From the NCBI GenBank assembly GCA_041659445.1, contig JBAZYG010000001.1, forward strand, positions 1 through 32,000: a stretch of DNA of 32,000 nt, in the 5' to 3' direction. Each line of letters begins with the position of its first letter. Positions within the stretch are counted from its first letter, which is position 1. The notes under the pieces are model-generated. The model had not been told where the DNA came from and did not search any database. It was given only the letters and a program-made list of their open reading frames with translations. The stretch comes from Candidatus Saccharimonadota bacterium. GTDB lineage: Archaea; Nanobdellota; Nanobdellia; Pacearchaeales; GW2011-AR1. Positions 1-27,014 of the stretch are shown here, piece by piece. A program made the translations under genes and the position numbers.

Positions 1-462
1 GCTTACATTTCAGATATTAATAGCAATTCTGGAATAAATGATTCTCAGAAATTTTCTGTTGGAACAACAGCTGGTTTTCAAGTAACACCTTCTTCTTTAA
101 CATTCTCGAGCATTAGTCCAGGTGCAATAAATACTGAATCTAATAAAATTATTCTTTTGAATAATACGGGTAATGACGAAGTAAGTATTGAAGTAAATGC
201 AACAAATCTTTATGGAGAACAAAATAATGCTTATGCTTTGTATGCTGAAAATTTTTCAGTGTCTACTTCTTCTGGTTGTGGTGGAACAGCAATGGTTTCA
301 CAAACTTATACTTCTATTTCAGGAGCATCATTACCAATAGGAAACTATACAATTAACGACGGAACTGCTCAAGAGCAATTGTATTTTTGTTTGAAATCTG
401 CAAATTCAAATTTAATTTCACAATCTTATTCAACTTCAGACGCAGGGGCTTGGATAATTCGA
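1..462 (+). repeat. Tandem gene-segment duplication: 1-462 is collinear with 1555-2019
   Basis: nt 1-126 equal 1555-1680 exactly. A divergent block with a 3-nt indel follows. After that, near-identical blocks alternate with divergent ones. Confidence 0.9.
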
Positions 463-2688: not shown

Positions 2689-4365
2689 ATGATAAAAAAA
2701 GAGATATTTTTCTGCTTAATTTTTATTTTTCTGCTGAATTTTTCAAGTGCAATAACTGGAGAATCTATTACTGGAAATGTTACAAGTCAAGGTTTTAGTT
2801 TAAGTATTTCTGTTGTTTTGAATACACCTTCTTTAGAAATAAATTCTCCTACAAATGGAACTTTTTTAACTACATTAAATTTACCATTGAATTATTCTGT
2901 TTCAAATGCTAACGCTGTTTGGTATAATTTAGATAATTCATTGAATACTTCGCTTTCTAATTTATCATCAATTATTTATTTTAATACTAGTTCAGGTTTT
3001 CATACACTTTATTTATATGCAAACAATTCAGATGGTTTAATTTCTAAAAATATTAGTTTCACTGTAGATTCTACAAAATTTATAATTCATTATAATGAAC
3101 GTAATTCTAATAACTTTGTTTCAACTGAGTTTAATTCATCAAGTTATGAAGATTTACAAAATATTTCAGGGGTTTTTTTTGAACAATTAAATTATGGTAG
3201 GATTTATTTTTTGGAATCTTTGAATGTTACAAATACTTCTACAGGGAATAATTCTATTAATTTAAATAATTATATTAATATTTCTTTTAACAGAATTGAA
3301 ATAAATTCAACAGCATTGCCAAATTTCAATAAATCTGCTCAATTAAAATTTTATAGTTTAAGTTTTAGTAATCCAAGAATTTTGAAAGATGGAAATGTTT
3401 GCTCAAGTGAAGAATGTTCAATAGTTGGATATTCTTCGGGAATTTTAACTTTTAATGTTGACGATTTTAGTGTTTATTCTTCAGAAGAAACTCCCTCTGA
3501 AGTAGTTTCTTCTGGTGGTGGGGGTGGAGGTTCATCAAAAGTGAGATTAAAAGAAAGTGATTTAGTTTTTGATAAAGATATTCTTAAAATTGATTTGAGA
3601 CAAGGTCAAAGTATTCTTACTAATTTAAGTTTAACAAATGTTGGTAATGAAGTTTTTGATGTTGAAATTGTCGTCGATGAAAAAATAGATTTTTTAATAG
3701 ATATTGATGAAAAAACTTTTATTATGAACTCTAATGGGCAGAAAGAAATTCCAATTTCGTTTTTTTCAAATGAAGAAACAATTCCAGATGTTTATTTCGG
3801 AGAGTTAATGATAAATTATGGTGATTTTAATAAAGAAATTCCAGTTATTATTGATATTGATTCTTTGCAATCTTTATTGGATGTTGAATTGGTTTTACCT
3901 AATCCTTCTAATATTTATTCTCCTGGTAGTGATTTAACTGTTGTATCTAAAATAACTAATTTTGGAGAAGTTGGAAGATTTGATGTAATTCTCGAATATG
4001 AAATAACTGATTTAGAAGGAAATATTATTTTGTCTAATAGCGATTCAATGGCTGTTGAAACCCAATTTAGTAATGTTCAAATTTTTACAATTCCAGATTA
4101 TTTAAAAAGAGGAAGATATCTTGTTTCTGTCAAAGCAAAATATAATGGGGAAGTTGCTGTTGCAAGTCATGAATTTTTTGTTGATAGAGGATTAAGAACA
4201 GTTCTCTTAGATAATTTAACTTTAGTTGTCATATTTATTCTTCTTGGTATTCTTCTGATTTTGATTTTTTTAATAATTATTAAATGTTTTTTTCAGAGGA
4301 TGTTAAATCATGCTATAAGCAAAGAGAAAAAGCATATTTCTCTATCTAAAAAAAATAAAAAATAA
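2689..4365 (+). CDS. Large cell-surface protein (signal peptide, sequon-rich, Gly linker, C-terminal TM anchor)
   Basis: Signal FFCLIFIFLLNFSSA, dozens of N-x-S/T sequons and an SSGGGGGGSS linker. Two CARDB-like segments (LTNVGNEVFDVEI...; ITNFGEVGRFDV...). C-terminal TM LVVIFILLGILLILIFLIII plus a basic tail. Confidence 0.7.
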   Translation: MIKKEIFFCLIFIFLLNFSSAITGESITGNVTSQGFSLSISVVLNTPSLEINSPTNGTFLTTLNLPLNYSVSNANAVWYNLDNSLNTSLSNLSSIIYFNTSSGFHTLYLYANNSDGLISKNISFTVDSTKFIIHYNERNSNNFVSTEFNSSSYEDLQNISGVFFEQLNYGRIYFLESLNVTNTSTGNNSINLNNYINISFNRIEINSTALPNFNKSAQLKFYSLSFSNPRILKDGNVCSSEECSIVGYSSGILTFNVDDFSVYSSEETPSEVVSSGGGGGGSSKVRLKESDLVFDKDILKIDLRQGQSILTNLSLTNVGNEVFDVEIVVDEKIDFLIDIDEKTFIMNSNGQKEIPISFFSNEETIPDVYFGELMINYGDFNKEIPVIIDIDSLQSLLDVELVLPNPSNIYSPGSDLTVVSKITNFGEVGRFDVILEYEITDLEGNIILSNSDSMAVETQFSNVQIFTIPDYLKRGRYLVSVKAKYNGEVAVASHEFFVDRGLRTVLLDNLTLVVIFILLGILLILIFLIIIKCFFQRMLNHAISKEKKHISLSKKNKK

Positions 4366-5669: not shown

Positions 5670-5783
5670 AGCCTCCAGAGAGATTTGAACTCCCGACCTA
5701 CTGCTCTCTTACCAATCCGCTTTCACGAAGCGCCTATGCGTTATGGCTACAAGGCAGCCGCTCTGCCACTGAGCTATGGAGGC
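5670..5783 (-). tRNA. tRNA-Thr(TGT) with a 42-nt intron at 37/38 (intron 5706-5747)
   Basis: Reverse complement reads GCCTCCA-TA-GCTC..GAGC-G-GCTGC-CTTGTA|intron|A-GCAGT-AGGTC-GGGAG-TTCAAAT-CTCTC-TGGAGGC-T. CTTG pairs with TAAG at the intron 3' end, followed by a 3-nt AGA bulge, which is BHB-like. Confidence 0.8.
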
Positions 5784-6873: not shown

Positions 6874-7179
6874 ATGGTAAGGATAAAATTTTCTAAAGGA
6901 AAACAAAGAAAATTTTTTGATAGAGTTTTGGAATTGTTAAATTGTCCTTCTTTAAGAGAATTAATTGCTCGTGGAATTGATGCAGACTATTCATCATTAA
7001 AAAATTATTATTCTGAGAGAAGAACAATTCCAGAAAATTTATTTAATAGTTTATGTGAGATTTCTAAATTAGACAAAACTTCTTTTTCATCCAAGAAGAT
7101 TTCTGAGCATTGGGGACAAATTAAAGGAGGAAAAATTAGTAAAAGAAAAAAAATTAAACATGGCCCTGCGAAGAATTGA
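6874..7179 (+). CDS. Small basic hypothetical protein, possibly HTH-like
   Basis: ORF only. The segment SLRELIARGIDADYSSLKNYYSERRTIPENLF looks HTH-like. The 3' end overlaps the convergent tRNA-Val by 19 nt, and promoter geometry is unclear. Confidence 0.4.
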   Translation: MVRIKFSKGKQRKFFDRVLELLNCPSLRELIARGIDADYSSLKNYYSERRTIPENLFNSLCEISKLDKTSFSSKKISEHWGQIKGGKISKRKKIKHGPAKN

Positions 7180-7277
7180 ACTCCGGTCTCATCCATTTTG
7201 AGAGTTTAACTCTTAAAACTATTCTTCTAAAGTTATATCGCGTCAAGGATACGTCTTAGCCATTGGACTACAGGGCC
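7161..7277 (-). tRNA. tRNA-Val(GAC) with a 45-nt AT-rich intron at 37/38
   Basis: Reverse complement reads GGCCCTG-TA-GTCC..GAC-G-TATCC-TTGACG|intron|T-GGATG-AGAC-CGGAG-TTCAATT-CTTCG-CAGGGCC-A. TTGA pairs with TCAA, followed by a 3-nt AAT bulge. Confidence 0.8.
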
Positions 7278-7332: not shown

Positions 7333-7530
7333 ATGAGAAGAGGAATGAAAGCATTTTGGTTTTTACTGCATCTTATTTTTGGATTATATCTTATAAATGT
7401 TCCTATACAATTTGTTAAAATTCCAGCATCTTTTTCAGTTGTTAACACATGGATAATTTTTGTTGGGGGAATTTTGGTTCTTTTTGGCGGAATTAATTAT
7501 TTGAGAGCTTCTAGATATAGTAATTTTTAA
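7333..7530 (+). CDS. Small membrane protein (2 TM)
   Basis: Hydrophobic segments FWFLLHLIFGLYLI and WIIFVGGILVLFGGI. Confidence 0.45.
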   Translation: MRRGMKAFWFLLHLIFGLYLINVPIQFVKIPASFSVVNTWIIFVGGILVLFGGINYLRASRYSNF

Positions 7531-7598: not shown

Positions 7599-7904
7599 AT
7601 GGGTAATTTTTTAGATGAATTTGATAACCTAGAAAAAAAACAAAAAGAAATTAACAAGGATTTGCAGGAATATAAAAAAGGTTATAAGCATGGGAGAAAT
7701 TCGACAAGAAATCCAGAATATAAAAAATATGGTTTGCATCAAGACATTAAAACTTTTTCAGGTATTAATAAAGGAGTATATGATTCAATGCCTCAACTAA
7801 AAGGAAATAGGGCATCTTATGCTAGTGCAGGAATGAGCCATGCAGATGAAACAGGAGATATTTCTTTAATGAAAGATAGCCCCTCAAGTTATATGAAGAA
7901 TTAA
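7599..7904 (+). CDS. Hydrophilic hypothetical protein
   Basis: ORF only; no recognisable motif. Confidence 0.4.
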   Translation: MGNFLDEFDNLEKKQKEINKDLQEYKKGYKHGRNSTRNPEYKKYGLHQDIKTFSGINKGVYDSMPQLKGNRASYASAGMSHADETGDISLMKDSPSSYMKN

Positions 7905-7906
7905 AT

Positions 7907-8218
7907 ATGGGAACAAGGAATGTTGTTCAAAAAAGATTAATGAAATTTGTTAAAAAGTATTATAATCATCTTTCTTTAGAGGATAAAAAAGAATTTAAGG
8001 AATTTTTTATTCGAAATGAAAAAAAAGAAAATGGTTTAGAAAAAAGTTTAGTTTCCAGTGTTTTTCTTATGATTTTTATTGCAGGCTTATTTTTTTCAGT
8101 TCCAAAAATTACAGGGGGAGTTATCGGCGTTTCTAAATTTGGTTCAAGTATTATTGGAAGTATCTTAATGATTATTGGTATTGTTGGTTCTTTTTTTTAT
8201 ATGTTTTTTAATAAATGA
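7907..8218 (+). CDS. Hypothetical membrane protein (basic N-terminus, 2 C-terminal TM)
   Basis: Starts 3 nt after the previous stop. Hydrophobic segments SVFLMIFIAGLFFSV and IIGSILMIIGIVGSFFYMFF. Confidence 0.45.
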   Translation: MGTRNVVQKRLMKFVKKYYNHLSLEDKKEFKEFFIRNEKKENGLEKSLVSSVFLMIFIAGLFFSVPKITGGVIGVSKFGSSIIGSILMIIGIVGSFFYMFFNK

Positions 8219-8277
8219 TTTTTAATTTTATCTTCATATAAACAAATATTTATATACATTATTTTTCTAATTTTGTT

Positions 8278-10137
8278 ATGGTTATGTTAACAAGAAAAAG
8301 AGGACAAGTTACAATTTTTGTGATTATTGCTTTGGTGTTAATTTTAGCTGTTGGAGGTTTTTTTTTAATTAAAAGTCAACTTCAAAAAAAGACAAGTTTT
8401 CCTGCTTTTGCCGAACCTATTGAAACAACTTTTTTAGATTGCTTAGAACAAAGAACATTAGACGGAATTTCAATTTTAGAAACCAATGGAGGTTCTCTTT
8501 ATTTTGATGATTTTGAAATTGGTTCAAGATACATGCCTTTTTCATCACATTTGAGTTTTATGGGAAATGAAATTCCTTATTGGTTTTATATTTCTGGAAA
8601 TAATATTCCAAGAGAAAATATTCCTACAAAAGAAAGTATGCAACAAGATTTAGAAAGATTTATTGAGAATAGTATTTCTAAATGTGATTTGACTTCATAT
8701 TATGATCAAGGATTTATTTTATCAAAAGGAGTTCCAGAAGCAACAGTTAAAATTAACGAAGGTTCAATTAATGTTGTTTTAAATATGGATTTAGAAATAT
8801 CTAAAGGTGCAGAAAATTATCTTATTAAAGAACATTCAGTAGAAGTTAAATCAAACTTGAAAAAATTATATGAAGATGCTGTTGATGTTTATAATTTTGA
8901 GCAAAAAGAATTTTTCTTAGAAAATTATTCTGTTGATTTTTTGAGATTGTATGCTCCTGTCGACGGAGTTGAAATTAGTTGTTCACCAAAAGTTTGGAGC
9001 GCAAGTAATGTTTCTGAAACTTTGAGAGATGCAGTAGAGCTAAACACTTTTGCTTTGAAAAATAAAGGAGATAAAAATGATTATTTTGCATTGAATTTGC
9101 CTGTTGAAAGTGAAGTTAGGTTTATTACATCAAAGACTTGGCCTTATTCTTTTGAAGTTTCACCTAACGAAGGAGATTCTTTAGTTGCAAAGCCTGTCGG
9201 AAATCAAGAAGGTTTGGGAGTTCTTGGATTTTGTTATGTCCCTTATCATTTTGTTTATAATTTTGCTTACCCTGTTTTAATTCAAGTTTTAGATGAGCAA
9301 ACAAATGAAGTTTTTCAATTCCCTGTTGCAGTTATTTTACATGGGAACAAACCAAGAGAATCCCTTGATGGGACTTCTTCTGCTCAAGAGTCATCTCAAG
9401 TTTGTGAATATGCAAATACTGAAGCAACAATAACTGTGAAAGATATAAATTCAAAACCAGTTAGCGTCGATGTTTCATATGAATGTTTTGTTTCTTCTAG
9501 TTGTTATCTTGGTCAAACTAATATTAACAATGGTAGTTTAACTGCACTTCTTCCACAATGTATCAATGGAAATTTTATTATTGAATCTCCTGATTATAAA
9601 AATCAAAAGATTATTTATTCAAGTGTTAATCCTGGAAGTTTAATTGTTTCTTTAGACAGAGAATATGAAAAAGAAGTTTCTCTTAAAATTGATGGGATAC
9701 CTTCAAGTAAAAATGCAGTAATTAGTTTTATTTCTTCAGATGGTGAATCTCAAACAATTGTTTATCCAGAATCTAATAAAATTAAATTAAGTTCTGGAAG
9801 TTATCAAATTAAAGTTTATGTTTATGAAAATTCTTCAATTAAATTAGGAGAAACTACAAGTCAACAATGTATTAAAGTTCCAACTGCTTTTGGAAGTATA
9901 ATTGGTATAGAAATAAATAGAAAAGAATGTTATGAAGTAAAAGTTCCAGAACAAATTATTTCAAATGTCCTTGCTGGTGGAGGAGTAACAAGTTATTATT
10001 TTGATGAAGAAGTTTTGTCTGGAAATAATGAGATTATAATCAATTCTCCAAATTTACCTACTCCTACAACAATCGAAGAATTACAGTTGAACTATATTTT
10101 ATATGAAAGTAATGGATTGGAGGTTTCAATTCAATGA
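8278..10137 (+). CDS. Secreted 619-aa protein with a type IV pilin-like (class III) signal peptide
   Basis: The N-terminus MVMLTRKRGQ|VTIFVIIALVLILAVGGFFLI has a basic stretch, then G-Q, then a ~20-aa hydrophobic helix. That is the archaeal prepilin-peptidase substrate pattern. A TATA-like ATATTTATATA lies ~25 nt upstream. The 3' end overlaps the next gene by ATGA. Confidence 0.7.
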   Translation: MVMLTRKRGQVTIFVIIALVLILAVGGFFLIKSQLQKKTSFPAFAEPIETTFLDCLEQRTLDGISILETNGGSLYFDDFEIGSRYMPFSSHLSFMGNEIPYWFYISGNNIPRENIPTKESMQQDLERFIENSISKCDLTSYYDQGFILSKGVPEATVKINEGSINVVLNMDLEISKGAENYLIKEHSVEVKSNLKKLYEDAVDVYNFEQKEFFLENYSVDFLRLYAPVDGVEISCSPKVWSASNVSETLRDAVELNTFALKNKGDKNDYFALNLPVESEVRFITSKTWPYSFEVSPNEGDSLVAKPVGNQEGLGVLGFCYVPYHFVYNFAYPVLIQVLDEQTNEVFQFPVAVILHGNKPRESLDGTSSAQESSQVCEYANTEATITVKDINSKPVSVDVSYECFVSSSCYLGQTNINNGSLTALLPQCINGNFIIESPDYKNQKIIYSSVNPGSLIVSLDREYEKEVSLKIDGIPSSKNAVISFISSDGESQTIVYPESNKIKLSSGSYQIKVYVYENSSIKLGETTSQQCIKVPTAFGSIIGIEINRKECYEVKVPEQIISNVLAGGGVTSYYFDEEVLSGNNEIIINSPNLPTPTTIEELQLNYILYESNGLEVSIQ

Positions 10138-13100
10138 TAAAAAATAAAAGCAAGAAATATTTTGCATTTTTTGCAATGTTTTTTTTAATTAGTATTTTTT
10201 TAATTTCTTTTTCTTTAGCTTCTTATACAGAGAGCAATATAAAATATTATTATGGTGGTTCTTCATTTTCAACTTCAAATATTGCAGATATTTATAATAC
10301 TGAATTATGCACAGAAGGAACAGATTTTATTTTGCAAATAGATCCTGCTGGTTGCACTCCTGCTGTTATAAGAAGTGATTTATTAGAAGAACAAAATGTT
10401 CCTGTATTTTGTCCAATTCGAGCAATTAAGGTAAATCCTCTAATTGACGTCGATGCGATTAGTTCTATGACTTTTTCAGGAGAATATTCTTCAAGTCAAG
10501 TAAGCACTGTTGGGTTTTATGGTTCTCGTTCTGCTTTAGGTTATAATGAAGAAATAAACTCTTTCAATTATCAAACTGTAGGATATGCTGTTATAATTTT
10601 AAGAAGTCAACCAAATGAATCTGCTCTTGAAAATTGTGAAAAAGAAACATTAGGAGAAGTTTGTTGGGTTGAAGGAAATCTTACTGCACTTATTTCTTAT
10701 GATATTGAAAATGCTTTTGGATTAAGAACCAGTCAATTTTATTTGCCTGTATTAAGCGACAGCGAATGGAATCTTCAAAAAAATAAATATTATTTTTGGG
10801 ATGCAAGAGGATATTTAAGAGCAGAAGAAATTGGCGATGATAGTGCAAAAATAACTATTTATTCAGATGTTTCAAAAACAACATTTGAAGGGAACACTGG
10901 TGAAAAAAGAAAAGTTGGAAGTGAAACATTAAATGTTGGAGAAAGTTCTGATGTATATTATCTTCCTGGTTTAGGGTGTTTTGCAAGTTTAAGATTAAAA
11001 TTAAAAGATATTCAAGGTATGGATACTTATGCAAATTTAAAAATAAATTCAGAATATTATAACGCTGTTGAAGGAGAATATTTTTTAGATAATAAATGTA
11101 GAGTTATAGATTTATCAAATGAAGGAATTAATCAAAGAGCAACAATAAAATGTAATGAAGATAGAGAAGAAGGTTCATTTAGTTTATTTGGTAGTTCAGG
11201 TACTTATAATTTAGAAGTTGTTCCAAGACTTTCAATAATTGTTGGAGAAAATGGGAATGATGTTCTTAAAAAAGTTCAAATAGGTGATTTATTATATAAT
11301 TCAGGTTCGAGATCTATTTACTTAGGTTATGCTAATGAAGTTTTTAATGATGAAAATCCCGATGGTGTTCTTAAAGCTTATTTAATTTCAATTACAGATT
11401 CTGAAGCAAAAAAATTGAAAGACCCTAATAAATTAGATGCAGATTTAATTCAATATGTTAAAGAAATTGTTGAAGGATTAAATGTTCAAGATAGAGAAGG
11501 TGTTTCAACTTTGGGAGATGCAGTTTCTAAAGGAATTAATTGGGTTTCTTCAGGTTTTAGAAAACAATGGGCTTCATTAATCGACGGAGATTCATATGCT
11601 ACTTTAGAAATGGGGCAAATAGAAGAATTTGAAGGAAAAGAATTTGAATTACTTAATTTTGCAGAAGGAGATAATTTTGATTTATATGACGATGTTCAGG
11701 CATATTATGACAAAGCAATTATAGATTATAATACTCTTATAGAAAATTATATTAATGAAAAATACCCAACAGATGCACAAAAAACACTTGCAGAACAAGC
11801 ATCTGAAAATAAAATACTTTTAGCAGATTATCTCAAGCAAAATTATGATGTGAGAGAGTTTTGTCAAGAATATCAATCTTATTATCCTAATTCTGAGATT
11901 CCAGAAATTTGCACAGACCTTGAAAGAAATTCAAATGAAGGAATTTCTGAAATGAGCGTTTTAATCGACGGAAGAGTAAAATCTATTTCTTTAGTTAGTG
12001 TTCATGAACCAACTTATAATGATTATGGTGTGGATTTATTAGTTAGAAATTCAGATGGAACAGTTAATGAATATTATTTGACAAAAAATAAGAAAATTTA
12101 TATCAATACTACAAGTGATGAATTTGTAAAGCTTCTTTCAATCGACGACAAAGAAACAGTTAAGATTCAAATTTCTGCAAATAAAAATGACCGTCTTTCA
12201 AAATCAGAAGATTTCTTTTTAGGAGATTATCAAACTATGAAAAAAGATGTTTCATATGAATTTGGAACTAATTATGTTTTTTCTGTTCAAGATATTAATT
12301 TAAGAGAATATGCAAAAGTTGAAGTTGTTCCAGATATAGAACATTCGCGTTCTGAAGCAAGTTTTAAATTTAAAATTGGTGTTGAAAAAAGAGGAATTCA
12401 ACTTTCTCCTGAAGTCACAAAAAATAAAATTGACTCTTTGAATAAAACTATAGAACAATGGACAAAGATTTCTGATGATTTAGGAAGTGTTATTACAACT
12501 ATGAAAAGCGCTTGTTTGCTTACAGGAAGTTATTTGACTGTTAAAAATCTTTTAGAAAATTCAGACGGAAAATCAATAGCAAGGCAAAATGTAATGCAAG
12601 GAGAAGGTGGCTGGAATGAAAGATGTGCTGATTTTGTTTCATCTGGAAAATATTCTTCTAAAGAAAAATGTTTTTTGGAAAATTCAGATCAAATTGAAAA
12701 AGATGTTGACGAATATTATCAAGCAATGTCTGAACAAAATGGGGAAATTAAAAAATTACAAGAGGAATATATAATTGATAAAGGATTTTTAGGAGAAACA
12801 AGAATTGATACTGATGCATTTTTAAAAAATTATTCTAATAAAGTTGGAGAAAGTTTAAGTGGAGATATAACTGATGAAGAAGGGAATACAATAAATTTAA
12901 ATGAATTTAGTAATCTTTTTACTTCTTCAAATGCTTCTGATTTAGGTTTGTATAATATAGAAGAAGTAAGAGAAATTGAATTGAATTATAATTTGTGGAA
13001 AGAAACAGGAAATGATATTTATCAGCAAAGATTATATCATGCAATTTATGATGTTAATGAAAACTCTTTAGAATATAAAAAAGTATTACAAGCACAATCT

Positions 13101-16100
13101 AGTGCAAACAGCGACGGTTTTGAAGGAATGAATTTTCCAGTTTATTCTGATAAAAATAAAAAACAAGAAACTTATCAAGGATTTGTAACAAAAAATTCTG
13201 GTTGGTGGGGAGATGCTGGAACTCTAATTCAAGGAATAACTTATAATGGAAAACAATATTATGTCACATTGAAGGATGTTGGAAATAATCAATATGTTAT
13301 AATTGATGTTTATGATTTAGATGGGATAAAAACTGATGAATATAATTACATAAAAGATAAATATTCTTATTTTAAGAGATATGATTCTTCAAGTTATCAA
13401 AATGAATATAAAAATTATGAAGTTAGATTTTATGAATCAGAACCTTATACTGGGTTACCTGCAATAATTCCTTTAAGTATTTCAAAAGGATGGTATGTTT
13501 ACATTGAGCAAGCACTTCCTTTTGCAGGAGAAATAGCAAGTTATGATTTATCTGGTGCAGTTAATAGTTATTGGCTTTGTAACGTCGGAGAAAATGGATT
13601 AGAAGAATTTAATTCAGGAATTAACGACGATATTTGTCAACTTATAAATAAAGGAACACACCAACCATATGACCAATTTTCAGGGCTTAGTGAAAAGGAG
13701 GCTTCAGAATTAGTGAATTTTGCAGAGTCAAGTATTGAATCTGTTTCAAGGCAATATGAAAGTGCTCTTAAATCTAGAAGAGTTAGCGTTGAATTAATTG
13801 AAGGTGGTTCCCCTAAAACAATTATAGTTGGAGAACCTGAAACAAATGTCCCTGGTTTTGAATGTAGTGATTACATGTCTGTTAAAGATTGTCAATTATT
13901 ATTTAATGTTTGTGACCCTGTTGTGTGTCCTAGTTCAAGATGTGATTTTGGAGGACAATATCCTGTAAAAGATGTTATTCAATCTGGAATTATTGGAAGT
14001 ATTGCTTTGTGTTTGCCAAATTATAAAGAAGGAATTTATATGCCTGTTTGTTTAACTGGTTTGAAATCTGGAATTGATAGTTGGCTTTCAGTTTCAAAAT
14101 CTTATCAAGATTGTTTGCAAACAAGTTTAGATAGTGGTGAAACTGTTGGAGTTTGCGACGAGATTAATAGTATTTATATGTGTGAATTTTTTTGGAGACA
14201 AGCATTGCCTTTAGCAAAATTAACTATTCCAAAAATAATAACTGCTTTAACAGGAGAAAATGTTAGAGGTGGAGGAGAATATTTGGGTCTTGAAAGTGCT
14301 TGGCAAAATGCACAAGACTCTGTCGATTATTTAACAGATTATTATGCAGTTAATACTTTTAATGCATTTAAATTTAGGGATACTGATCAAGTTGGAAGTG
14401 CAGTTTGTAAAAACTTTGTTTCTTTAACATATCCTGAAGGAGCAAGTTTGCTTGAATCTTTGACAACTCCTGATTCTCCTGCTCAATTTTATGGAAGGTT
14501 TGATGAAATTCCGTTGACAACTGCAACAAATCCTCCAATTTCTCAATATAAAGTTTATTATCATATTTATGCAGGAACTGATAGAGGTGCTTATTATCAG
14601 GTTTATCTTCGAGGAGAACTTGAAAGTTCATTTTATCAATCAGGTGTTGGAAGATTAATTAATTCTGGATATATTGCTAAAGGAGAATATGCAAGTGAGA
14701 CAAGAGATATTACTGGACCAGAAGGATTTACAGAATTATGTATAAACGTTAATGGTCAAGAAGAATGCGGTTTTGGAGAAGTCACAACTAGTTTTGCTTT
14801 TGATTATATAAAAGATCAATATTTGAAAGGACAAGTAACAGAAAGTAATATTACATCGCAAAAAGAATGTATTTCTGGAAGTGCAGATATTTACAGTTTG
14901 CTTAATCCAAATGTGCAAGAAGGAGTTGATAATTTAATTAATCCACAAATTTACAATAAAGGAATTACAAGAATTTGTGCAACAGATAACCCTGGAAGTT
15001 CTTCAGATATTTCTGTTGGTTCTTCTGATCAAAGATGGATTGAAGTTGGTTATTGCGACGATGTAAATGTTAAATGTTGGTTGGACACAGAAACACTTTC
15101 AGATGCATTTAATTTTGAAACAACTTCAAATCAAGCATTAGGAGAGGTTATTGATGATTATGTACAAACATTATTAAATAATAATTCAAATTACATAGAC
15201 TCAAATGAATTTAAAGAAGAGTTGTCTAAAATAGAAAATGTCGACGATCCTAAAGAAAAAATTAATCATATAAATACAATCCTTAATAAAATATTTTTCA
15301 ATAATGAAAAAGCTTATTTATACTTTTTACGAGGAGAAAATAATGGGCTTTTAGCAAAGGCTTATTTTTTTACTTTTACAGAACCTTTACAAGACCATGT
15401 TCAATCTTATTACAAAGATAATTATTATTGTGAAGATTTTAGTGTAGAAGAAAAGAAAGATTTAATTGAAGAAGAATTGGGAGAAGGTTCTACTAATAAT
15501 TTTACAGAATATCAAATTGAAACAACATTTCGTAATGAAGTGGAAATTCCTTTTATTGAAGATGTTTTTAATGCAAATGAAATAGATACTAGTAATTTAA
15601 CAACTGCACAAATTTATGATAAATATAGAAATGAATTTTGTGATACTTATGAAATAGAATATGAAGAACCATTTGAAAATCAATTTAAAGAAGTTTCTCC
15701 AAAATTTGAATTTGAAAATGGATTTAATTATAGAGGTAATTTGTGTTATCAATATGCTGATGGACAATGGTATTGGACAAAGAATTGTGATTCTGTAGGA
15801 GATATTGTAGTAAGTGGTATAACACCAACATTATTTTATCCTCAGATATATACTGTTGATTGGATTCCAACTTCAAGTATAATTAATCCTTATGGAAATG
15901 AACCAAGTGACGACGATGCTGTATTTATTCAACAATTAAATTCAGCGTCTATGGAAGAAGGTGTTGATTTACTTGTTAAAAGAACATTAGCAGATAATGA
16001 AAATTATACTTGGTTTTGGGGACTTTTCACTACTGGAAATTCTTTTGGAGATACAAAATTAATTACTAAAAATGTTGAATTAACTTCAGATGGGATTTTT

Positions 16101-17666
16101 TTAGTTGATACTGACGGATGGAGAGAAGAACTTGAATTTTATTTTAAAAAACCTTCTTCTGATTCTTATTCTTATTATTGGTATTGGAAATTTTCAGATC
16201 TTGGAGATGAAGGTGAAAATTGGATAAGAGTAACTGAAACTACTCATCCAAAAAAAACTTATGCTTCATTGACAACACTTGAAAAAAATATTTTAAATGG
16301 TTTGAATGGAATTGAATTTTTAAATGGGGCAAGATTTTTATTTTTAGAGGTTCAATCATTGCCTAGTTATGATGGGGGAAATGAATCTGCTATCAATATT
16401 ACAGAGAAAAATAAAGATTTGATAAAGGCAATGAAAGATGCTTCGGGATTAACGGGAAAAGCATATATTTCTATTGGAGGAAAAGATATTGAAGAAAATA
16501 TCGCTTTTGTTGATAAACTTTGTTCAGGTTATTATGTTGTAGATATTTCTGTTGAACAATGTGAAGATATTAAAGGACATAGTTCTAGTGCAAATGCATG
16601 GACTAATACTTGGAATGGCGTGGAAGAAATGTCTTTTGTTAAAAGTATTTTAATCTCGCTCAGCGACCAGACTTATGGAAAATGGATACATGAATCTGCA
16701 TTATTAGAAGTTGAAAATCTTAAAGAAGACGGGGGATATCTATCTTATGATGCTTATAATGATTTTGTTTTAGAATTGTATGACGACGGAGTTATTAATC
16801 AAGAATTTTATGAATTTCAAAAAGAGAAAGAACATTTAGAGAAAATAAATCTTTTGTATGATTATTTGACTAAAGGAAGCGTACCTATTGTTCTTACAGA
16901 TAAAGATTATCAATGCAAGGAATTAGGCGGGGAATGCAAATATACTTCTCTTTATAAATGTAGTAAATCATGGGTAACAGGTAAATGTTTGGCTGATCAA
17001 AGTAGTGATTATTTATGTTGTACAGGAATAACAAGTGAAAAAGATTTTGATTTTGATTTTGTAAAAAGAGATCCTGCAGTTTTAACAGAGATGATAAAAT
17101 ATTTAAAAGATTCTGGAACAAAAGTAGTTAGTAGAAGTTGTGTTTGTGGAAGTGATAGTAGATGTAGCACATATGCAAAATTAATTTCTGAACAAACTGC
17201 TTCAAACGGACTTCCTGATGAATTATTGTTTTTATCTTTAATAATGCAAGAATCTTCTTGCATTTCTACAAGCGTTAGTTCTTCAGGTGCTATTGGATTA
17301 ACTCAAATTATGCCGTCGACATTCAAAGATTTTTGTGCAGGAAAATCTGGATTTGAATTTATCAATGATGTTTCTCAAATTAAAAATGATCCTCAAGCTC
17401 AATTAAAATGTGGGGCAATTATTTTTAGAGGAAAATATAATTCTTATAAAAATGGGTTGAGTTCTACCACAATTTCAAAGTATTGTAGTAATGTTGCTTT
17501 AATTAATAAATATGCAAGTTATACTGACTGGGATGCTGCTTTAAGAGGATATAATGGTTGGGGTTGTACAACTGGTGCAGATACGGAGTATGTTGAAAAT
17601 GTCATGACAAGATATAATTCTCTTGTTTCAATTTATGAAGAAAAACCTTGGGAAAGTGTTGCTTAA
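10134..17666 (+). CDS. Giant (2510 aa) secreted or membrane-anchored protein with a Cys-rich central module, a C-terminal Cys-knot-like module and an SLT lytic-transglycosylase domain
   Basis: Uninterrupted ORF. A GGAGGT SD at 10119-10124 lies 9 nt upstream of the ATG, inside the upstream gene. N-terminal signal/anchor FAFFAMFFLISIFLISFSLA. The C-terminal motifs are listed under the SLT feature. Confidence 0.85.
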   Translation: MIKNKSKKYFAFFAMFFLISIFLISFSLASYTESNIKYYYGGSSFSTSNIADIYNTELCTEGTDFILQIDPAGCTPAVIRSDLLEEQNVPVFCPIRAIKVNPLIDVDAISSMTFSGEYSSSQVSTVGFYGSRSALGYNEEINSFNYQTVGYAVIILRSQPNESALENCEKETLGEVCWVEGNLTALISYDIENAFGLRTSQFYLPVLSDSEWNLQKNKYYFWDARGYLRAEEIGDDSAKITIYSDVSKTTFEGNTGEKRKVGSETLNVGESSDVYYLPGLGCFASLRLKLKDIQGMDTYANLKINSEYYNAVEGEYFLDNKCRVIDLSNEGINQRATIKCNEDREEGSFSLFGSSGTYNLEVVPRLSIIVGENGNDVLKKVQIGDLLYNSGSRSIYLGYANEVFNDENPDGVLKAYLISITDSEAKKLKDPNKLDADLIQYVKEIVEGLNVQDREGVSTLGDAVSKGINWVSSGFRKQWASLIDGDSYATLEMGQIEEFEGKEFELLNFAEGDNFDLYDDVQAYYDKAIIDYNTLIENYINEKYPTDAQKTLAEQASENKILLADYLKQNYDVREFCQEYQSYYPNSEIPEICTDLERNSNEGISEMSVLIDGRVKSISLVSVHEPTYNDYGVDLLVRNSDGTVNEYYLTKNKKIYINTTSDEFVKLLSIDDKETVKIQISANKNDRLSKSEDFFLGDYQTMKKDVSYEFGTNYVFSVQDINLREYAKVEVVPDIEHSRSEASFKFKIGVEKRGIQLSPEVTKNKIDSLNKTIEQWTKISDDLGSVITTMKSACLLTGSYLTVKNLLENSDGKSIARQNVMQGEGGWNERCADFVSSGKYSSKEKCFLENSDQIEKDVDEYYQAMSEQNGEIKKLQEEYIIDKGFLGETRIDTDAFLKNYSNKVGESLSGDITDEEGNTINLNEFSNLFTSSNASDLGLYNIEEVREIELNYNLWKETGNDIYQQRLYHAIYDVNENSLEYKKVLQAQSSANSDGFEGMNFPVYSDKNKKQETYQGFVTKNSGWWGDAGTLIQGITYNGKQYYVTLKDVGNNQYVIIDVYDLDGIKTDEYNYIKDKYSYFKRYDSSSYQNEYKNYEVRFYESEPYTGLPAIIPLSISKGWYVYIEQALPFAGEIASYDLSGAVNSYWLCNVGENGLEEFNSGINDDICQLINKGTHQPYDQFSGLSEKEASELVNFAESSIESVSRQYESALKSRRVSVELIEGGSPKTIIVGEPETNVPGFECSDYMSVKDCQLLFNVCDPVVCPSSRCDFGGQYPVKDVIQSGIIGSIALCLPNYKEGIYMPVCLTGLKSGIDSWLSVSKSYQDCLQTSLDSGETVGVCDEINSIYMCEFFWRQALPLAKLTIPKIITALTGENVRGGGEYLGLESAWQNAQDSVDYLTDYYAVNTFNAFKFRDTDQVGSAVCKNFVSLTYPEGASLLESLTTPDSPAQFYGRFDEIPLTTATNPPISQYKVYYHIYAGTDRGAYYQVYLRGELESSFYQSGVGRLINSGYIAKGEYASETRDITGPEGFTELCINVNGQEECGFGEVTTSFAFDYIKDQYLKGQVTESNITSQKECISGSADIYSLLNPNVQEGVDNLINPQIYNKGITRICATDNPGSSSDISVGSSDQRWIEVGYCDDVNVKCWLDTETLSDAFNFETTSNQALGEVIDDYVQTLLNNNSNYIDSNEFKEELSKIENVDDPKEKINHINTILNKIFFNNEKAYLYFLRGENNGLLAKAYFFTFTEPLQDHVQSYYKDNYYCEDFSVEEKKDLIEEELGEGSTNNFTEYQIETTFRNEVEIPFIEDVFNANEIDTSNLTTAQIYDKYRNEFCDTYEIEYEEPFENQFKEVSPKFEFENGFNYRGNLCYQYADGQWYWTKNCDSVGDIVVSGITPTLFYPQIYTVDWIPTSSIINPYGNEPSDDDAVFIQQLNSASMEEGVDLLVKRTLADNENYTWFWGLFTTGNSFGDTKLITKNVELTSDGIFLVDTDGWREELEFYFKKPSSDSYSYYWYWKFSDLGDEGENWIRVTETTHPKKTYASLTTLEKNILNGLNGIEFLNGARFLFLEVQSLPSYDGGNESAINITEKNKDLIKAMKDASGLTGKAYISIGGKDIEENIAFVDKLCSGYYVVDISVEQCEDIKGHSSSANAWTNTWNGVEEMSFVKSILISLSDQTYGKWIHESALLEVENLKEDGGYLSYDAYNDFVLELYDDGVINQEFYEFQKEKEHLEKINLLYDYLTKGSVPIVLTDKDYQCKELGGECKYTSLYKCSKSWVTGKCLADQSSDYLCCTGITSEKDFDFDFVKRDPAVLTEMIKYLKDSGTKVVSRSCVCGSDSRCSTYAKLISEQTASNGLPDELLFLSLIMQESSCISTSVSSSGAIGLTQIMPSTFKDFCAGKSGFEFINDVSQIKNDPQAQLKCGAIIFRGKYNSYKNGLSSTTISKYCSNVALINKYASYTDWDAALRGYNGWGCTTGADTEYVENVMTRYNSLVSIYEEKPWESVA
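17160..17630 (+). other. SLT / GH23 lytic-transglycosylase (goose-lysozyme-like) domain at the C-terminus of the giant protein
   Basis: LFLSLIMQESSC (catalytic Glu-Ser; Glu codon at 17250-17252), GAIGLTQIMPSTF (GLxQ motif) and ALRGYNGWG (AYNxG-type motif). Order and spacing match SLT domain 1 enzymes. Confidence 0.75.
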
Positions 17667-17702: not shown

Positions 17703-17723
17703 AAGATTTTTTAGTTTTTTCAT

Positions 17724-17823
17724 GCAGGAATGCCGGAGAACTCACACACTCGCTCACATCAAGGGCGATTTGGTTGGTTCGCGAATATGTTCGGGTCAAA
17801 CGAGTTTTCCAACGTCCTCATAT
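17724..17823 (+). pseudogene. Decayed tRNA-Leu copy serving as a 100-nt GC-rich leader of the intact tRNA-Leu
   Basis: The first 15 nt (GCAGGAATGCCGGAG) are identical to tRNA positions 1-15. Collinear fragments follow: TCAAGGGCGATTTGG vs TCAAACGGGCGAGATTTAGG, and GGTTCGCGAAT vs GGTTCGAAT. There is no 3' acceptor strand. Confidence 0.4.
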
Positions 17824-17907
17824 GCAGGAATGCCGGAGTGGTCAAACGGGCGAGATTTAGGCTCTCGTAGCTTAGTGCTTGCGAAGGTTCGAATCCTTCT
17901 TCCTGCA
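17824..17907 (+). tRNA. tRNA-Leu(TAG), class II with a long variable arm, no intron
   Basis: GCAGGAA-TG-CCG..CGG-G-CGAGA-TTTAGGC-TCTCG-TAGCTTAGTGCTTGC-GAAGG-TTCGAAT-CCTTC-TTCCTGC-A. Confidence 0.9.
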
Positions 17908-17946
17908 CTCGTGGGCAACCAATGGTTTCCCGAACGTTCTCCCTTC

Positions 17947-17953
17947 TTTTTTT
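17947..17953 (+). terminator. T7 tract ending the tRNA-Leu unit
   Basis: CCCTTC-TTTTTTT lies 40 nt past the tRNA 3' end, after the GC-rich trailer. Confidence 0.4.
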
Positions 17954-18716
17954 AATGTATCAAATCAAAAGATTTTTTAGAATTGTAAAATTTTAATGCT
18001 GTTAAGTAATGTCCTATATTTTTATTTGTATAAACTTTAGGGTAAATTCTTTTTTTGTGCATTTCTTTAATTAAATTATAACTTCTTTTATAAGGAATTA
18101 TTAAATCAGATTTTGAGTTAAATATAATAATTTTAGTTTTTTCTAAATTTTTTAAATTATTTTGTGGTTCAAGTTCTTTCCAGAGAATTTTTAATTTTTT
18201 CAATTTTATTCCTTGTTTTATAAAAGATTTTTTAATATTTTGTGTTCTAAGCCCTTCCCAAACTCCTTGGGCAAGACTATCTGATGGCATTAATAAAATT
18301 AATTTATTTACTCTTAATTCATTAGTAATCATAAAAGAAGGAATTCCACCTAAACTTGTTCCAATAATTATTTTTTCATTTTTTGTGTTCTTTAAATCTT
18401 TAATAATTTTATTTTTTATTTCTTTCATATATTCTTTGACTTGATTTGCTCTAGAAGATAAAATATCTTTAGAAAGTTGATAAAAAATATAAGAATTTTT
18501 TTGCTTTTTTATTCTTTTTTTAAATTTTTTTGAATGATTTGAACTTTCATACCATCCAGATAATATAAAATAAGTTTTATTTGAATTTGGATTAATTTGC
18601 TCTTCTATTTTTGTAAATGCAGATACTTTTTTTACAAATAAATTTGTTTCAATTTCTTTATAATTCTTTTTTCTTATTAAACTAAAAATAAATAAAATTA
18701 TTTTATCAAGTTTCAT
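17952..18716 (-). CDS. Alpha/beta-hydrolase-fold protein (esterase-like)
   Basis: IIIGTSLGG nucleophile-elbow-like motif (G-x-S-x-G), a later SKSDLIIP (Asp) and NIGHY (His), in the order expected for a Ser-Asp-His triad. Confidence 0.5.
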   Translation of the reverse strand: MKLDKIILFIFSLIRKKNYKEIETNLFVKKVSAFTKIEEQINPNSNKTYFILSGWYESSNHSKKFKKRIKKQKNSYIFYQLSKDILSSRANQVKEYMKEIKNKIIKDLKNTKNEKIIIGTSLGGIPSFMITNELRVNKLILLMPSDSLAQGVWEGLRTQNIKKSFIKQGIKLKKLKILWKELEPQNNLKNLEKTKIIIFNSKSDLIIPYKRSYNLIKEMHKKRIYPKVYTNKNIGHYLTALKFYNSKKSFDLIH

Positions 18717-21911: not shown

Positions 21912-22026
21912 GCCCTGGTAGCTCAGCCTGGATAGAGCACCTGCCTTCTAGCCATACGCATAGGCTTTGTGAGGCGCAGAAAGGGAAGGGAGCAGGGGGT
22001 CGCAGGTTCAAATCCTGTCTAGGGCA
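21912..22026 (+). tRNA. tRNA-Arg(TCT) with a 40-nt intron at 37/38 (21951-21990)
   Basis: GCCCTGG-TA-GCTC..GAGC-A-CCTGC-CTTCTA|intron|A-GCAGG-GGGTC-GCAGG-TTCAAAT-CCTGT-CTAGGGC-A. CTTC pairs with GAAG, followed by a GGA bulge. Confidence 0.85.
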
Positions 22027-26655: not shown

Positions 26656-26877
26656 ATGAACTTAGATGAAAAAGCGATTTTTTTTGAAAGTCATTCTGAC
26701 GAAAGTAAGAAAGCAAAAAAACTTTTAGATAAAAATAATTTAAATTTTGTAAGTATTTATATTTCAAATTATGAAAAACCAATATTAATTTCATCAGATT
26801 CTGCTTATAGTTTTAAAGGAATTTCAAGCATCAAAAGTCACATAAAATTTTTATTTAATTTTAAAAAATGTCTCTGA
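26656..26877 (+). CDS. Hypothetical small protein, glutaredoxin-like layout without a CxxC
   Basis: The arrangement IFFESHSDESKKAKKLLDKNNLNF resembles Grx, with the CPYC position replaced by SHSD. The 3' end overlaps tRNA-Met by 9 nt. Confidence 0.35.
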   Translation: MNLDEKAIFFESHSDESKKAKKLLDKNNLNFVSIYISNYEKPILISSDSAYSFKGISSIKSHIKFLFNFKKCL

Positions 26878-27014
26878 GGGGAATTTAACCCCCGACCTCT
26901 GCCTCTCTCAAAATTTCTTGTTTTGATTTTCAGGCTCAAAATAAATTTTGGCCAGATTCATATTCGCAAGCGAATATTCATGAGAGCAGCGCTCTAACCC
27001 TGAGCTACAGAGAC
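26869..27014 (-). tRNA. Elongator-type tRNA(CAT) (Met, or Ile2 if C34 is modified) with a 72-nt intron at 37/38
   Basis: Reverse complement reads GTCTCTG-TA-GCTC..GAGC-G-CTGCT-CTCATG|intron|A-GGCAG-AGGTC-GGGGG-TTAAATT-CCCCT-CAGAGAC-A. CTCA pairs with TGAG, followed by an AGA bulge. It is not initiator-like: no A1-U72 pair and no GGG/CCC in the anticodon stem. Confidence 0.8.

Follow-up and report, generated by a model that had tools for sequence, protein, structure and literature searches.

A co-translated gene pair of Pacearchaeota-type archaea, encoding a class III-signal protein and a secreted giant with exchangeable C-terminal domains, as a candidate surface complex directed at bacterial murein

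Why should an archaeon encode a very large secreted protein that ends in a murein-type lytic transglycosylase, and why should its gene be joined to one whose product begins like a prepilin? The locus that raises this question lies in a 32,000-nucleotide stretch of DNA, the whole of which we call the window. An earlier note, made from the letters of the window alone, had ascribed it to a small-genome archaeon, and this was borne out: the organism belongs to the DPANN archaea, the NCBI name being Candidatus Pacearchaeota. The two genes and the elements around them are as follows.

8278..10137, + strand: ORF of the 619-aa partner gene
10134..17666, + strand: 7.5-kb ORF, the gene for the 2510-aa secreted giant
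10134..10137, + strand: ATGA start/stop overlap of the partner and giant genes, indicating translational coupling
10119..10124, + strand: GGAGGT Shine-Dalgarno (SD)-like element within the 3' end of the 619-aa gene
8249..8256, + strand: TATA-like box TTTATATA, lying 29 nt ahead of the start codon (ATG) of the 619-aa gene, a putative promoter of a leaderless operon
7333..7530, + strand: small ORF of 65 aa with two TM segments, a frequent conserved upstream neighbor of the pair
17824..17908, + strand: tRNA-Leu immediately downstream of the giant gene, the end of the unit

Both the ATGA overlap and the GGAGGT element from which coupling of the two genes had been proposed are present, and comparison of related loci substantiates the coupling. 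A 619-like gene lies directly upstream of the giant gene in every locus having upstream DNA; the synteny check that the earlier note had called for found the same gene order in all 84 loci read, and the 4-nt overlap recurs at 47 of 71 partner/giant junctions. The distant pairs L085 and L086 likewise retain adjacency and the same overlap. An SD-like sequence is found at 32 of the 71 junctions. However, the GGAGGT at 10119-10124 doubles as codons for a conserved Leu-Glu-Val, so its conservation is ambiguous and weak as an independent argument, and we dropped it as a separate proof of coupling. At least 508 stretches of GTDB species-representative genomes contain a relative of the giant, and the pair is flanked by ribosomal-protein and TFB genes (L44e-S3Ae and TFB-S8e). 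The partner and the giant are a strictly conserved, co-translated two-gene module, vertically inherited in Pacearchaeota-type DPANN archaea. A viral or mobile origin was rejected, as 2.9 million viral contigs (IMG/VR) contained no relative and the surroundings of the pair are core genome.

The placement of this TATA-like box suggests that the operon begins there with a putative promoter; 25 of 55 related loci have such an element at precisely -29. Three small ORFs upstream had previously been set beside the pair. The 65-aa ORF is indeed conserved: of 54 loci with at least 1 kb of upstream DNA each, 31 have a homolog in the same orientation, 34-551 nt ahead of the pair, whereas the ORFs at 7599-7904 and 7907-8218 are lineage specific. 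As members of the operon, the three were rejected, two of them being unconserved and the TATA-like box separating them from the 619-aa gene; the 65-aa two-TM ORF is probably outside it. On the other side of the unit, tRNA-Leu is followed by convergent hydrolase and TFB genes; no immunity-type ORF was found downstream of the giant gene in the window, and no conserved small downstream ORF or cassette array was found across the related loci.

The N terminus of the partner gives the first indication of where the pair resides.

8278..8304, + strand: basic leader MVMLTRKRG, predicted to be cut by a prepilin peptidase after Gly9
8305..8370, + strand: mature N-terminal hydrophobic helix QVTIFVIIALVLILAVGGFFLI, a membrane anchor or filament-core segment as judged by hydropathy and an AF2 model

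The leader MVMLTRKRG runs into QVTIF, with R8-G9 before and Q10 after the predicted cut, and 22 hydrophobic residues follow. In 119 of 120 homologs, a basic leader, which varies from 5 to 34 aa, precedes the pattern K-[RK]-[GAS]-Q(100%)-V-T-I-F(100%)-I-I(100%)-I-A. Across the family, K or R occupies -2 in 79% of cases, G, A, or S occupies -1 in 100%, and Q occupies +1 in 100%; Q10, F14, and I16 are invariant, and the motif is kept in relatives at only 21-29% identity. A class III signal is defined by a short basic leader having a basic residue at -2, G or A (or S) at -1, and a conserved +1 residue, with some 20 hydrophobic residues behind it (PMC3387779), and the partner has this arrangement in its leader, in its -2, -1, and +1 residues, and in the hydrophobic stretch. 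The prepilin-like signal that had been recognized on the 619-aa ORF is thereby upheld. Curated pilin and class III Pfam models gave no match other than a subthreshold one to Tad (PF13400; E 0.48), which recurs in 2 of 73 family members, and searches against Pfam, NCBIfam, and PDB sequences, including one with the family profile against PDB, returned nothing for the partner. At least 2155 full-length homologs are present at 46-57% identity, and clustering at 50% identity gives 807, 3139, and 6327 clusters at E<=1e-30, 1e-10, and 1e-3, respectively. The protein is composed of the class III signal, the N-terminal hydrophobic helix, an alpha/beta domain, and three beta-sandwich domains (AF2 model, pLDDT 80.6), and its only anchor, by hydropathy, is N terminal.

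The giant divides into an N-terminal signal, a long conserved core, and a C-terminal portion that we take up below.

10134..10220, + strand: Sec-type signal peptide, with predicted cleavage between SLA and SY
10221..15383, + strand: conserved core, aa 30-1750, with occupancy of 0.8-1.0 and 14-81% column identity among 119 homologs
13857..15083, + strand: most conserved block, aa 1242-1650, with invariant Cys, a GGGEY motif, and the short hydrophobic stretch VIQSGIIGSIALCLP

A single hydrophobic segment (aa 10-28) is present in the giant, at its N terminus. In 105 of 120 sequences, the residue at -1 before a conserved Tyr is small and that at -3 is small or aliphatic (V/S/A/L/T), a pattern that favors a Sec/SPase I signal over an anchor. 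It indicates that the giant carries a predicted Sec/SPase I signal and lacks an anchor of its own; of the signal or anchor suggested in the earlier note, the former stands and the latter does not. The dense Cys cluster seen previously proved to be a family trait, comprising 11 Cys between aa 1244 and 1425 that are all invariant in 36-69 homologs. It falls in the block of aa 1242-1650, where identity is 51-81% per 50-aa bin and which is retained in the distant L086 giant at 29% overall identity. The core matched no Pfam model, its family profile retrieved no PDB sequence, and Foldseek against PDB and BFVD returned no credible match. Structure prediction in segments, as had been proposed, gave a pLDDT of 65 for aa 551-1750, with values below 50 for aa 1266-1470, and a fold unmatched by Foldseek. 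The two proteins have 52 and 10 Cys, both even numbers, and acidic pI values, and N-glycosylation sequons are depleted (14 versus 25.5 expected); from these properties, the pair reads as extracellular and disulfide stabilized and probably not as a typical glycoprotein coat.

The C-terminal portion of the giant holds the domain that first drew attention to the locus.

15384..17138, + strand: variable tail before the enzyme, aa 1751-2335, with modules common to some orthologs only
16914..17021, + strand: 6-Cys module CKELGGEC...DYLCC (Cys 2261, 2268, 2276, 2285, 2295, and 2296)
17139..17663, + strand: C-terminal lytic transglycosylase module SLT/GH23, with the Pfam match at 17190-17555
17250-17252, + strand: codon of the catalytic Glu2373, by alignment with MltC

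The SLT-like end predicted for the giant is confirmed by PF01464, which matches aa 2353-2474 with an E value of 3.8e-9 and 36.6 bits, above the gathering score of 21.3 (38.7 bits with the tail alone), and NCBIfam and PHROG lytic transglycosylase/endolysin models also match the C terminus. Apart from this domain, Pfam, NCBIfam, and PHROGs found nothing in either protein. The alignment places Glu2373 (in IMQESS) on the Glu of IMQ(I/T)ESS in MltC (9vi7_A and 4c5f_A), which answers the question of whether the catalytic Glu is properly aligned; the motifs GLTQIM (aa 2388) and RGYNGWG (aa 2471) follow it. By these matches, the C terminus is an SLT/GH23 domain with its catalytic Glu intact and is predicted to cleave murein. 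With its ES, GLxQ, and YNxG motifs and with MltC and BB0259 as its best sequence matches, it resembles VirB1, flagellar BB0259/FlgJ-type enzymes, and MltC. Those enzymes, however, open the sacculus of the producer, whereas the archaeal producer has none, so the target of this SLT domain must be foreign. Ahead of the enzyme, the variable tail (aa 1751-2335) has no Pfam match; aa 1850-2050 are common to approximately 30 of 119 homologs, aa 2091-2250 to approximately 8, and the module at aa 2261-2296, in which we count six Cys rather than the eight reported before, to approximately 1.

Comparison across orthologs changes the standing of the transglycosylase. The N-terminal ~1750 aa are the conserved part of the giant, and the C terminus is exchanged among lineages. 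SLT is present in 25-42% of orthologs (18 of 72 species by Pfam and 30 of 72 with a family HMM), most of these tails keeping the E-S motif, and its distribution over the core tree is patchy (19 Fitch changes versus a permuted mean of 23.2). The other tails in these 72 species include VanY (2), glucosaminidase (2), ankyrin (2), a lysozyme-like domain (1), and PT-HINT (1); LRR is also found among ortholog tails, and YkuD, amidase_3, and DUF1615 lie at the extreme C termini of P0005, P0016, and P0020. Half or more of the ortholog tails have no recognizable murein-active domain, and those with ankyrin or LRR suggest protein targets. On this comparison of sequences, SLT belongs to a large set of modules that replace one another at the C terminus of a conserved 1750-aa core, and to treat it as the defining function of the module, as was done at first, was misplaced. 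Murein-specific catalytic domains of at least five different folds are found at this one terminal position. The D-amino-acid or MurNAc chemistry on which VanY, amidase_3, and YkuD act is peculiar to bacterial murein, and for this reason the tail set points to bacteria. Pseudomurein is disfavored as a target by the D-Ala-D-Ala carboxypeptidase, MurNAc-L-Ala amidase, and L,D-transpeptidase folds among the tails. Diversification by a diversity-generating retroelement (DGR) was also rejected: a repeat search across the window found no template/variable repeat in the giant, and the sole long repeat in the window (1-455 versus 1555-2012) has mismatches that are not adenine specific.

With a confidence slightly better than even, we infer that the pair forms an anchored surface complex directed at bacterial murein. 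A prepilin-type peptidase would cut the 619-aa protein after Gly9, and the processed protein would stay in the membrane, or on a type-IV-pilus-like fiber, through its QVTIF helix. Its beta-sandwich stalk may bind the Sec-exported giant, itself anchorless, in a noncovalent manner, and the giant core would point the C-terminal enzyme outward. The SLT domain could then cleave the MurNAc-(beta-1,4)-GlcNAc bond of bacterial peptidoglycan and so allow the archaeon to hold on to the wall of a bacterial host or prey, to thin it, or to perforate it; in other lineages, the same scaffold would bear an amidase, a D-Ala-D-Ala carboxypeptidase, an L,D-transpeptidase fold, a glucosaminidase, or protein-binding repeats. 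As it lacks murein, the archaeon would be intrinsically immune to such hydrolases and would need no immunity protein. The role at a host envelope is strengthened by the presence of several unrelated murein-specific domains at one terminal position in orthologs. To our knowledge, no host is known for any member of the Pacearchaeota, and the SLT domain could serve in the scavenging of wall fragments rather than in host contact. Set against the surface complex are the unmatched pilin and class III Pfam models, the absence of a pilus-assembly ATPase, platform protein, and prepilin peptidase from the window and from the 86 loci examined, the lack of any fold match for the core, the many tails without a murein-active domain, and a report of Pacearchaeota genomes without the transglycosylase (PMC11537232). 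Large class III surface proteins that are not pilins have a precedent in the Sulfolobus bindosome, where large secreted proteins with class III processing are retained or assembled at the surface (PMC3387779); those proteins are nevertheless unrelated to ours, serve solute uptake, and have no giant partner.

Part of this picture has appeared in publications spanning 2013-2024, and the supposition that the module was undescribed has to be withdrawn. Castelle et al. 2021 (PMC8204110; fam00969) and Vigneron et al. 2022 (PMC9723730) describe extracellular proteins of Pacearchaeota and Woesearchaeota, of up to 3000 aa and with a murein lytic transglycosylase domain, and put forward bacterial hosts as their target; both proteins and idea recur in PMC10936187 and PMC11537232. 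The giant, named by NCBI as a Pacearchaeota SLT-domain protein, fits the description of fam00969 in size, extracellular location, SLT domain, restriction to these DPANN lineages, and the proposed binding or degradation of bacterial walls, the comparison being one of descriptions only. The published family is defined by SLT, whereas here SLT is an accessory on a conserved core. The accessible portions of Castelle 2021, Vigneron 2022, and PMC10936187 contain no mention of a class III-signal partner, of an operon with 4-nt coupling, or of tail swapping; relative to them, the pilin-type partner, the operon, and the polymorphic tip are new. The published clue treats the big murein transglycosylase as an occasional feature of some genomes, and one study found Pacearchaeota genomes without it (PMC11537232). 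The occurrence of the pair in at least 508 species-representative genomes, its core-genome setting, and the five or more murein folds point instead to a lineage-wide apparatus against bacterial walls, not to a patchy annotation, and the genomes reported to lack the transglycosylase probably carry the same machine with another tip. The wall-cutting enzyme at the tip in this genome suggests that these archaea attack bacteria or attach to them. The invariant core, the predicted processed N terminus, the defined gene pair, and a tail type that may predict host wall chemistry offer experimental handles. We know of no cultured member of the Pacearchaeota.

The giant could instead be released, acting at a distance as a bacteriolytic or scavenging exoenzyme or as a polymorphic-toxin-like effector that yields sugars and peptides, with the 619-aa protein as only an export or maturation helper. 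Polymorphic toxin/effector systems (CdiA, Rhs, and PT-HINT-containing toxins) are reportedly those treated by Zhang et al. in Biol Direct in 2012, and variable C termini on a conserved trunk are their hallmark. The giant shares this design, its C-terminal domains varying out of step with the phylogeny of its N-terminal trunk; one ortholog, L062, carries a pretoxin-HINT (PT-HINT) domain (E 1.8e-11) followed by ~300 aa with no recognized domain, although Pfam finds no PT-HINT in the giant of the window. The Sec signal and the absence of an anchor are in keeping with release, and "vampiristic" or predatory hypotheses appear in PMC9723730. Nevertheless, the trunk is unrelated to FHA, RHS, and LXG-type trunks, immunity genes and orphan cassettes are absent downstream, and the tails are mostly wall hydrolases and not nucleases or deaminases. 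Further, an invariant trunk of 1750 aa with an obligatory stoichiometric partner would be costly in a genome of ~0.5 Mb, and the conserved class III N terminus of the partner favors assembly at the surface over a chaperone role. We therefore regard a released enzyme as unlikely.

Several observations bring to mind a two-component S-layer-like envelope, in which the 619-aa protein would be the anchored stalk, the giant the canopy, and the enzymes decorations. The pair is universal, apparently single copy, vertically inherited, and located beside ribosomal-protein genes. As in SlaA/SlaB of Sulfolobales, adjacent (and here co-translated) genes encode a small anchored subunit of tandem beta-sandwiches and a large one without its own anchor, and Foldseek matches the partner to SlaB (8qox_B) with an E value of 5e-6. 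Yet this match, like those to SpaA/BcpA pilins and CnaB2, arises only from generic beta-sandwich repeats (TM 0.12-0.16), and the giant resembles neither SlaA nor any solved S-layer protein in PDB sequence and fold searches. Known S-layer subunits have SPase I signals and C-terminal anchors (PMC3387779); SlaB combines beta-sandwiches with a coiled coil and a C-terminal TM anchor, whereas the anchor of the partner is N terminal and of class III. The pair is, moreover, Cys rich and highly conserved, and 40-80% identity over hundreds of species with many invariant Cys is atypical of an S-layer. It is also sequon poor, and the neighboring secreted ORFs at 1111-2031 and 2689-4365, which are sequon rich and have C-terminal anchors, look more like coat glycoproteins. 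An S-layer role is accordingly quite unlikely in our estimate.

A variant of the surface complex would place the 619-aa protein, as a modular minor pilin, at the tip of a type-IV-like filament that presents the giant away from the cell. The class III motif and the invariant N-terminal helix of the partner accord with such a role, and its AF2 model has helices at aa 8-35 and 46-69 and strands at aa 146-191, with a four-stranded antiparallel sheet within aa 46-191, before the extra modules begin. Modular pilins with adhesion modules are known, such as S. sanguinis PilB (as given in the accessible part of PMC8179133), and together with PilC and PilY1 they share with the partner a prepilin signal, a hydrophobic helix, and large extra modules at the surface. 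The partner has no sequence similarity to them, however; Foldseek on its model returned no type IV pilin and so did not confirm a pilin fold, and the functional module is here a separate, co-translated protein of 2000-3000 aa. No pilus-assembly ATPase, platform protein, or prepilin peptidase was found in the 32-kb window, part of a 486-kb contig, or in the 86 loci examined, nor any other pilin gene near the pair in those loci, and class III signals occur on nonfilament surface proteins too (PMC3387779). A pilus tip seems to us about as improbable as the S-layer.

We attach very little credence to the furthest-reaching proposal, that the pair is a conserved host-contact or penetration machine of Pacearchaeales-type and Woesearchaeales-type archaea living on bacteria, in which the enzyme would open the murein, the invariant disulfide-locked core would be a membrane-active (pore-forming or fusogenic) module making a cross-domain feeding connection, and the tail type would predict the wall chemistry of the host. 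It leans on the core, the most conserved part, with a short Gly/Ile-rich hydrophobic stretch and long helices, on which AF2 modeling fails. Lastly, SLT is normally a bacterial domain, and joining of an archaeal gene to a bacterial SLT gene during assembly had to be considered; this has practically no chance of being right and is refuted by the recurrence of the core-plus-SLT architecture in at least 25 independent 90%-identity clusters and in 18-30 of 72 species representatives, and is contradicted by the identical giant on two contigs and in four databases (NCBI, JGI, Logan, and ENA) and by uniform GC content across the core/SLT junction. The giant thus stands as the single uninterrupted ORF, 10134-17666, that it had first been taken to be.

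The window is rich in AT (GC, about 27%). Its content is archaeal and includes genes for TFB, ribosomal proteins (S3Ae, L44e and S8e) and tRNAs with introns. In NCBI, its proteins carry the name Candidatus Pacearchaeota, and the contig measures 486,529 bp. Both ORFs of the pair described in the earlier note are present, as are the ATGA overlap and the GGAGGT motif at their junction. The features of the locus are as follows.

7333-7530, ORF of 65 aa with two transmembrane segments
7599-7904, small ORF
7907-8218, small ORF with two C-terminal transmembrane segments
8249-8256, TATA-like box
8278-10137, plus strand, 619-aa protein with a class III (prepilin-type) signal (the partner)
10119-10124, GGAGGT
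10134-17666, plus strand, 2510-aa protein (the giant)
17722-17955, ORF of 77 aa
17824-17908, tRNA-Leu

The partner and the giant are both acidic, with a single, N-terminal hydrophobic segment each and an even number of Cys residues (10 and 52, respectively). The TATA-like box is placed at exactly -29 relative to the ATG of the partner gene, a position kept in 25 of 55 related loci, which suggests a leaderless two-gene operon with a putative promoter. The three small upstream ORFs, noted earlier beside the pair, proved to be of different kinds: the 65-aa ORF is conserved (31 of 54 loci have a homologue just 5' of the pair), and the other two, between it and the pair, are not, having no counterpart in related loci. 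The latter look like a lineage-specific insertion. Its overlap with the tRNA-Leu gene marks the 77-aa ORF 3' of the giant as spurious. An origin of the giant ORF as an assembly chimera was excluded.

A profile of the giant core, run against one genome of each GTDB species, recovered 508 stretches encoding a relative of the giant; their records bear the labels Pacearchaeota, Woesearchaeota or Nanoarchaeota. Of the 84 loci that were read, every one with upstream DNA has a gene resembling that of the partner directly 5' of the giant and in the same orientation, which bears out the pairing proposed earlier. The same 4-nt overlap occurs at 47 of 71 junctions, most of the others being gaps of 1 to 41 nt, and the pair is universal and translationally coupled. 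In most loci it is flanked by L44e-S3Ae and TFB-S8e, and it therefore belongs to the core, vertically inherited DNA rather than to an island; no relative was found among 2.9 million viral contigs. A profile of the partner family retrieved 807, 3,139 and 6,327 clusters (50% identity) at E values of ≤1e-30, ≤1e-10 and ≤1e-3, respectively. A more distant tier comprises partner-like proteins of 640 to 670 aa followed, with a 4-nt overlap, by a giant. In one such locus (L086) the giant retains the Cys-rich block (29% identity over 1,111 aa) and has an SLT-like end; in another (L085) it is barely recognizable as a relative. In L085, a third gene (17874-18653; 259 aa, no Pfam match) overlaps the giant stop by 4 nt, suggesting an operon of three genes in that lineage.

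The partner homologues share a basic leader of 5 to 34 residues, ending in K-[RK]-[G/A/S] in 119 of 120, followed by Q-V-T-I-F-I-I-I-A, in which the Q, the F and the second I of the I-I pair are found in 100%. This motif is kept in relatives of 700 to 800 aa with only 21 to 29% identity. It fits the archaeal class III rule (basic residue at -2, G or A at -1 and a conserved +1; PMC3387779), in agreement with the signal assigned earlier, and cleavage is predicted; as read from the family motif, the partner is a class III-type protein. Curated pilin models gave no match to the partner family. A short paralogue of this family, a 249-aa ORF that has the same class III-type N terminus (KKAQISIFIIISILLIG) and whose N-domain begins similarly, lies 3' of TFB in another locus (L052, 16654-17403), whose synteny is archaeal although its record is titled "bacterium." The giant family instead carries a Sec-type signal, in which a conserved Tyr is preceded by residues at -3 and -1 that are small or aliphatic.

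The first ~1,750 aa of the giant are conserved across 119 homologues, with identity peaking at 51 to 81% per 50-aa bin between aa 1251 and 1650, where every Cys is invariant. Past aa 1750, occupancy drops to 0.2 to 0.5; aa 1850 to 2050 of the window giant are common to about 30 of the 119 relatives, and a small Cys module, earlier counted as having eight Cys residues but in fact having six, to about one. At the C terminus, the predicted SLT domain (GH23 lytic transglycosylase) was recovered with PF01464 at aa 2353 to 2474 (E value, 3.8e-9; 36.6 bits versus a threshold of 21.3), and NCBIfam and PHROG matches are to lytic transglycosylases and endolysins. Glu2373 of an IMQESS motif aligns with the catalytic Glu of MltC and is followed by GLTQ and GYNGWG motifs. 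Judged by its sequence, the tip here is a GH23 enzyme whose active site is intact. Other tails differ.

Pfam domains in the giant tails of 72 species representatives
SLT: 18 by Pfam; provisionally 30 with a family-specific HMM
VanY: 2
Glucosaminidase: 2
DUF1615: 2
Ankyrin: 2
Lysozyme-like, DUF2272, peptidase M10, CAP, PT-HINT: 1 each
No Pfam match: remainder

Among protein-database matches of the giant, YkuD (aa 2741 to 2902 of 2,904), amidase_3 (aa 2507 to 2700 of 2,707) and DUF1615 likewise occupy the extreme C terminus, and LRR tails are also present. The distribution of SLT on the core tree is near random (19 Fitch changes versus 23.2 with permuted labels), indicating that the tip has been swapped often and the trunk inherited. 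The giant is a predicted Sec-exported protein without an anchor, in which an invariant trunk carries a polymorphic terminal domain. One tail (L062, 13670-16207) has a pretoxin-HINT domain (E value, 1.8e-11) and then ~300 aa without a family match, the classic polymorphic-toxin layout on a giant trunk.

The AF2 model of the partner (73 sequences; pLDDT, 80.6) comprises an N-terminal helix (aa 8 to 35), a second helix with a four-stranded sheet, an additional α/β region and three β-sandwich domains (aa 375 to 575). Foldseek relates it to the sandwich-built proteins TIE, SpyCEP, SlaB, SpaA/BcpA and CnaB2, all with TM scores of ≤0.16. The invariant residues 227 to 230 and 306 to 320 sit in segments that AF2 cannot place and are read as a candidate partner interface. 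The giant model (aa 551 to 1750; 36 sequences) reached a pLDDT of only 65, its best-conserved block staying below 50, and had no credible match in PDB or BFVD; sequence profiles likewise found nothing in PDB. By these methods, the core counts as an orphan fold. Only one segment, at aa ~747 to 820 (window 12372-12600), can still be aligned with the most divergent giant, that of L085 (30% over 158 aa). It consists of KIGVEKRGIQLSPE and then a predicted helix of ~50 residues, includes the invariant Arg753, within a stretch that AF2 cannot model, and may serve in processing or interaction.

We propose that the partner holds the giant at the cell surface, anchored either to the membrane or to a pilus-like fibre, and that the terminal domain would act on foreign cell walls. 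The same scaffold position is occupied by a lytic transglycosylase, a MurNAc-L-Ala amidase, a D-Ala-D-Ala carboxypeptidase, an L,D-transpeptidase fold or a glucosaminidase, all specific for murein chemistry, and to our knowledge the archaeon has no murein substrate of its own. The case for bacterial murein as the target rests most strongly on this recruitment of unrelated murein-specific folds, rather than on SLT alone. The orthologue with PT-HINT supports a released lytic exoenzyme or polymorphic-toxin-like effector, but the costly trunk and the obligatory partner make this unlikely. A two-component S-layer, with which the β-sandwich stalk of the partner and the anchorless large subunit would be compatible, is improbable, given that the pair is highly conserved, Cys-rich and depleted in N-glycosylation sequons, that no SlaA-like match was found and that ORFs 1111-2031 and 2689-4365 are better candidates for coat glycoproteins. 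The pair is akin both to polymorphic C-terminal effectors and to modular pilin-associated surface proteins.

The module had been thought undescribed, but the giant family and the idea of a bacterial host are already published. Castelle et al. 2021 (PMC8204110) report from Pacearchaeota and Woesearchaeota the family fam00969, whose proteins reach 3,000 aa and bear a murein lytic transglycosylase domain, crediting earlier sightings to Rinke 2013 and Castelle 2015; Vigneron et al. 2022 (PMC9723730) proposed predation; and two 2024 papers (PMC10936187 and PMC11537232) restate the point, the latter adding that some Pacearchaeota genomes lack the enzyme. The passages of these papers that were covered do not refer to a class III partner, to an operon or to a tip that is exchanged.

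Elsewhere in the window, ORFs 1111-2031, 2098-2640 and 2689-4365 encode three secreted proteins with Sec signals, two of which have a C-terminal transmembrane anchor and then a Lys-rich tail; N-glycosylation sequons are strongly enriched in the first (14 versus 8 expected) and the third (19 versus 10). A duplicated segment (1-455 and 1555-2012; 99% identity over 131 nt and then 84% over 300 nt) represents the C-terminal parts of paralogous secreted proteins, namely, ORF 1111-2031 and a truncated ORF with which the window opens; it is not a DGR template/variable pair, since the mismatches are not adenine-specific. Rfam identified four long tRNA genes of 114 to 146 nt (5670-5783, 7161-7277, 21912-22026 and 26869-27014) that were missed by ARAGORN and presumably contain introns; a tRNA-splicing endonuclease gene is present at 28174-28692.
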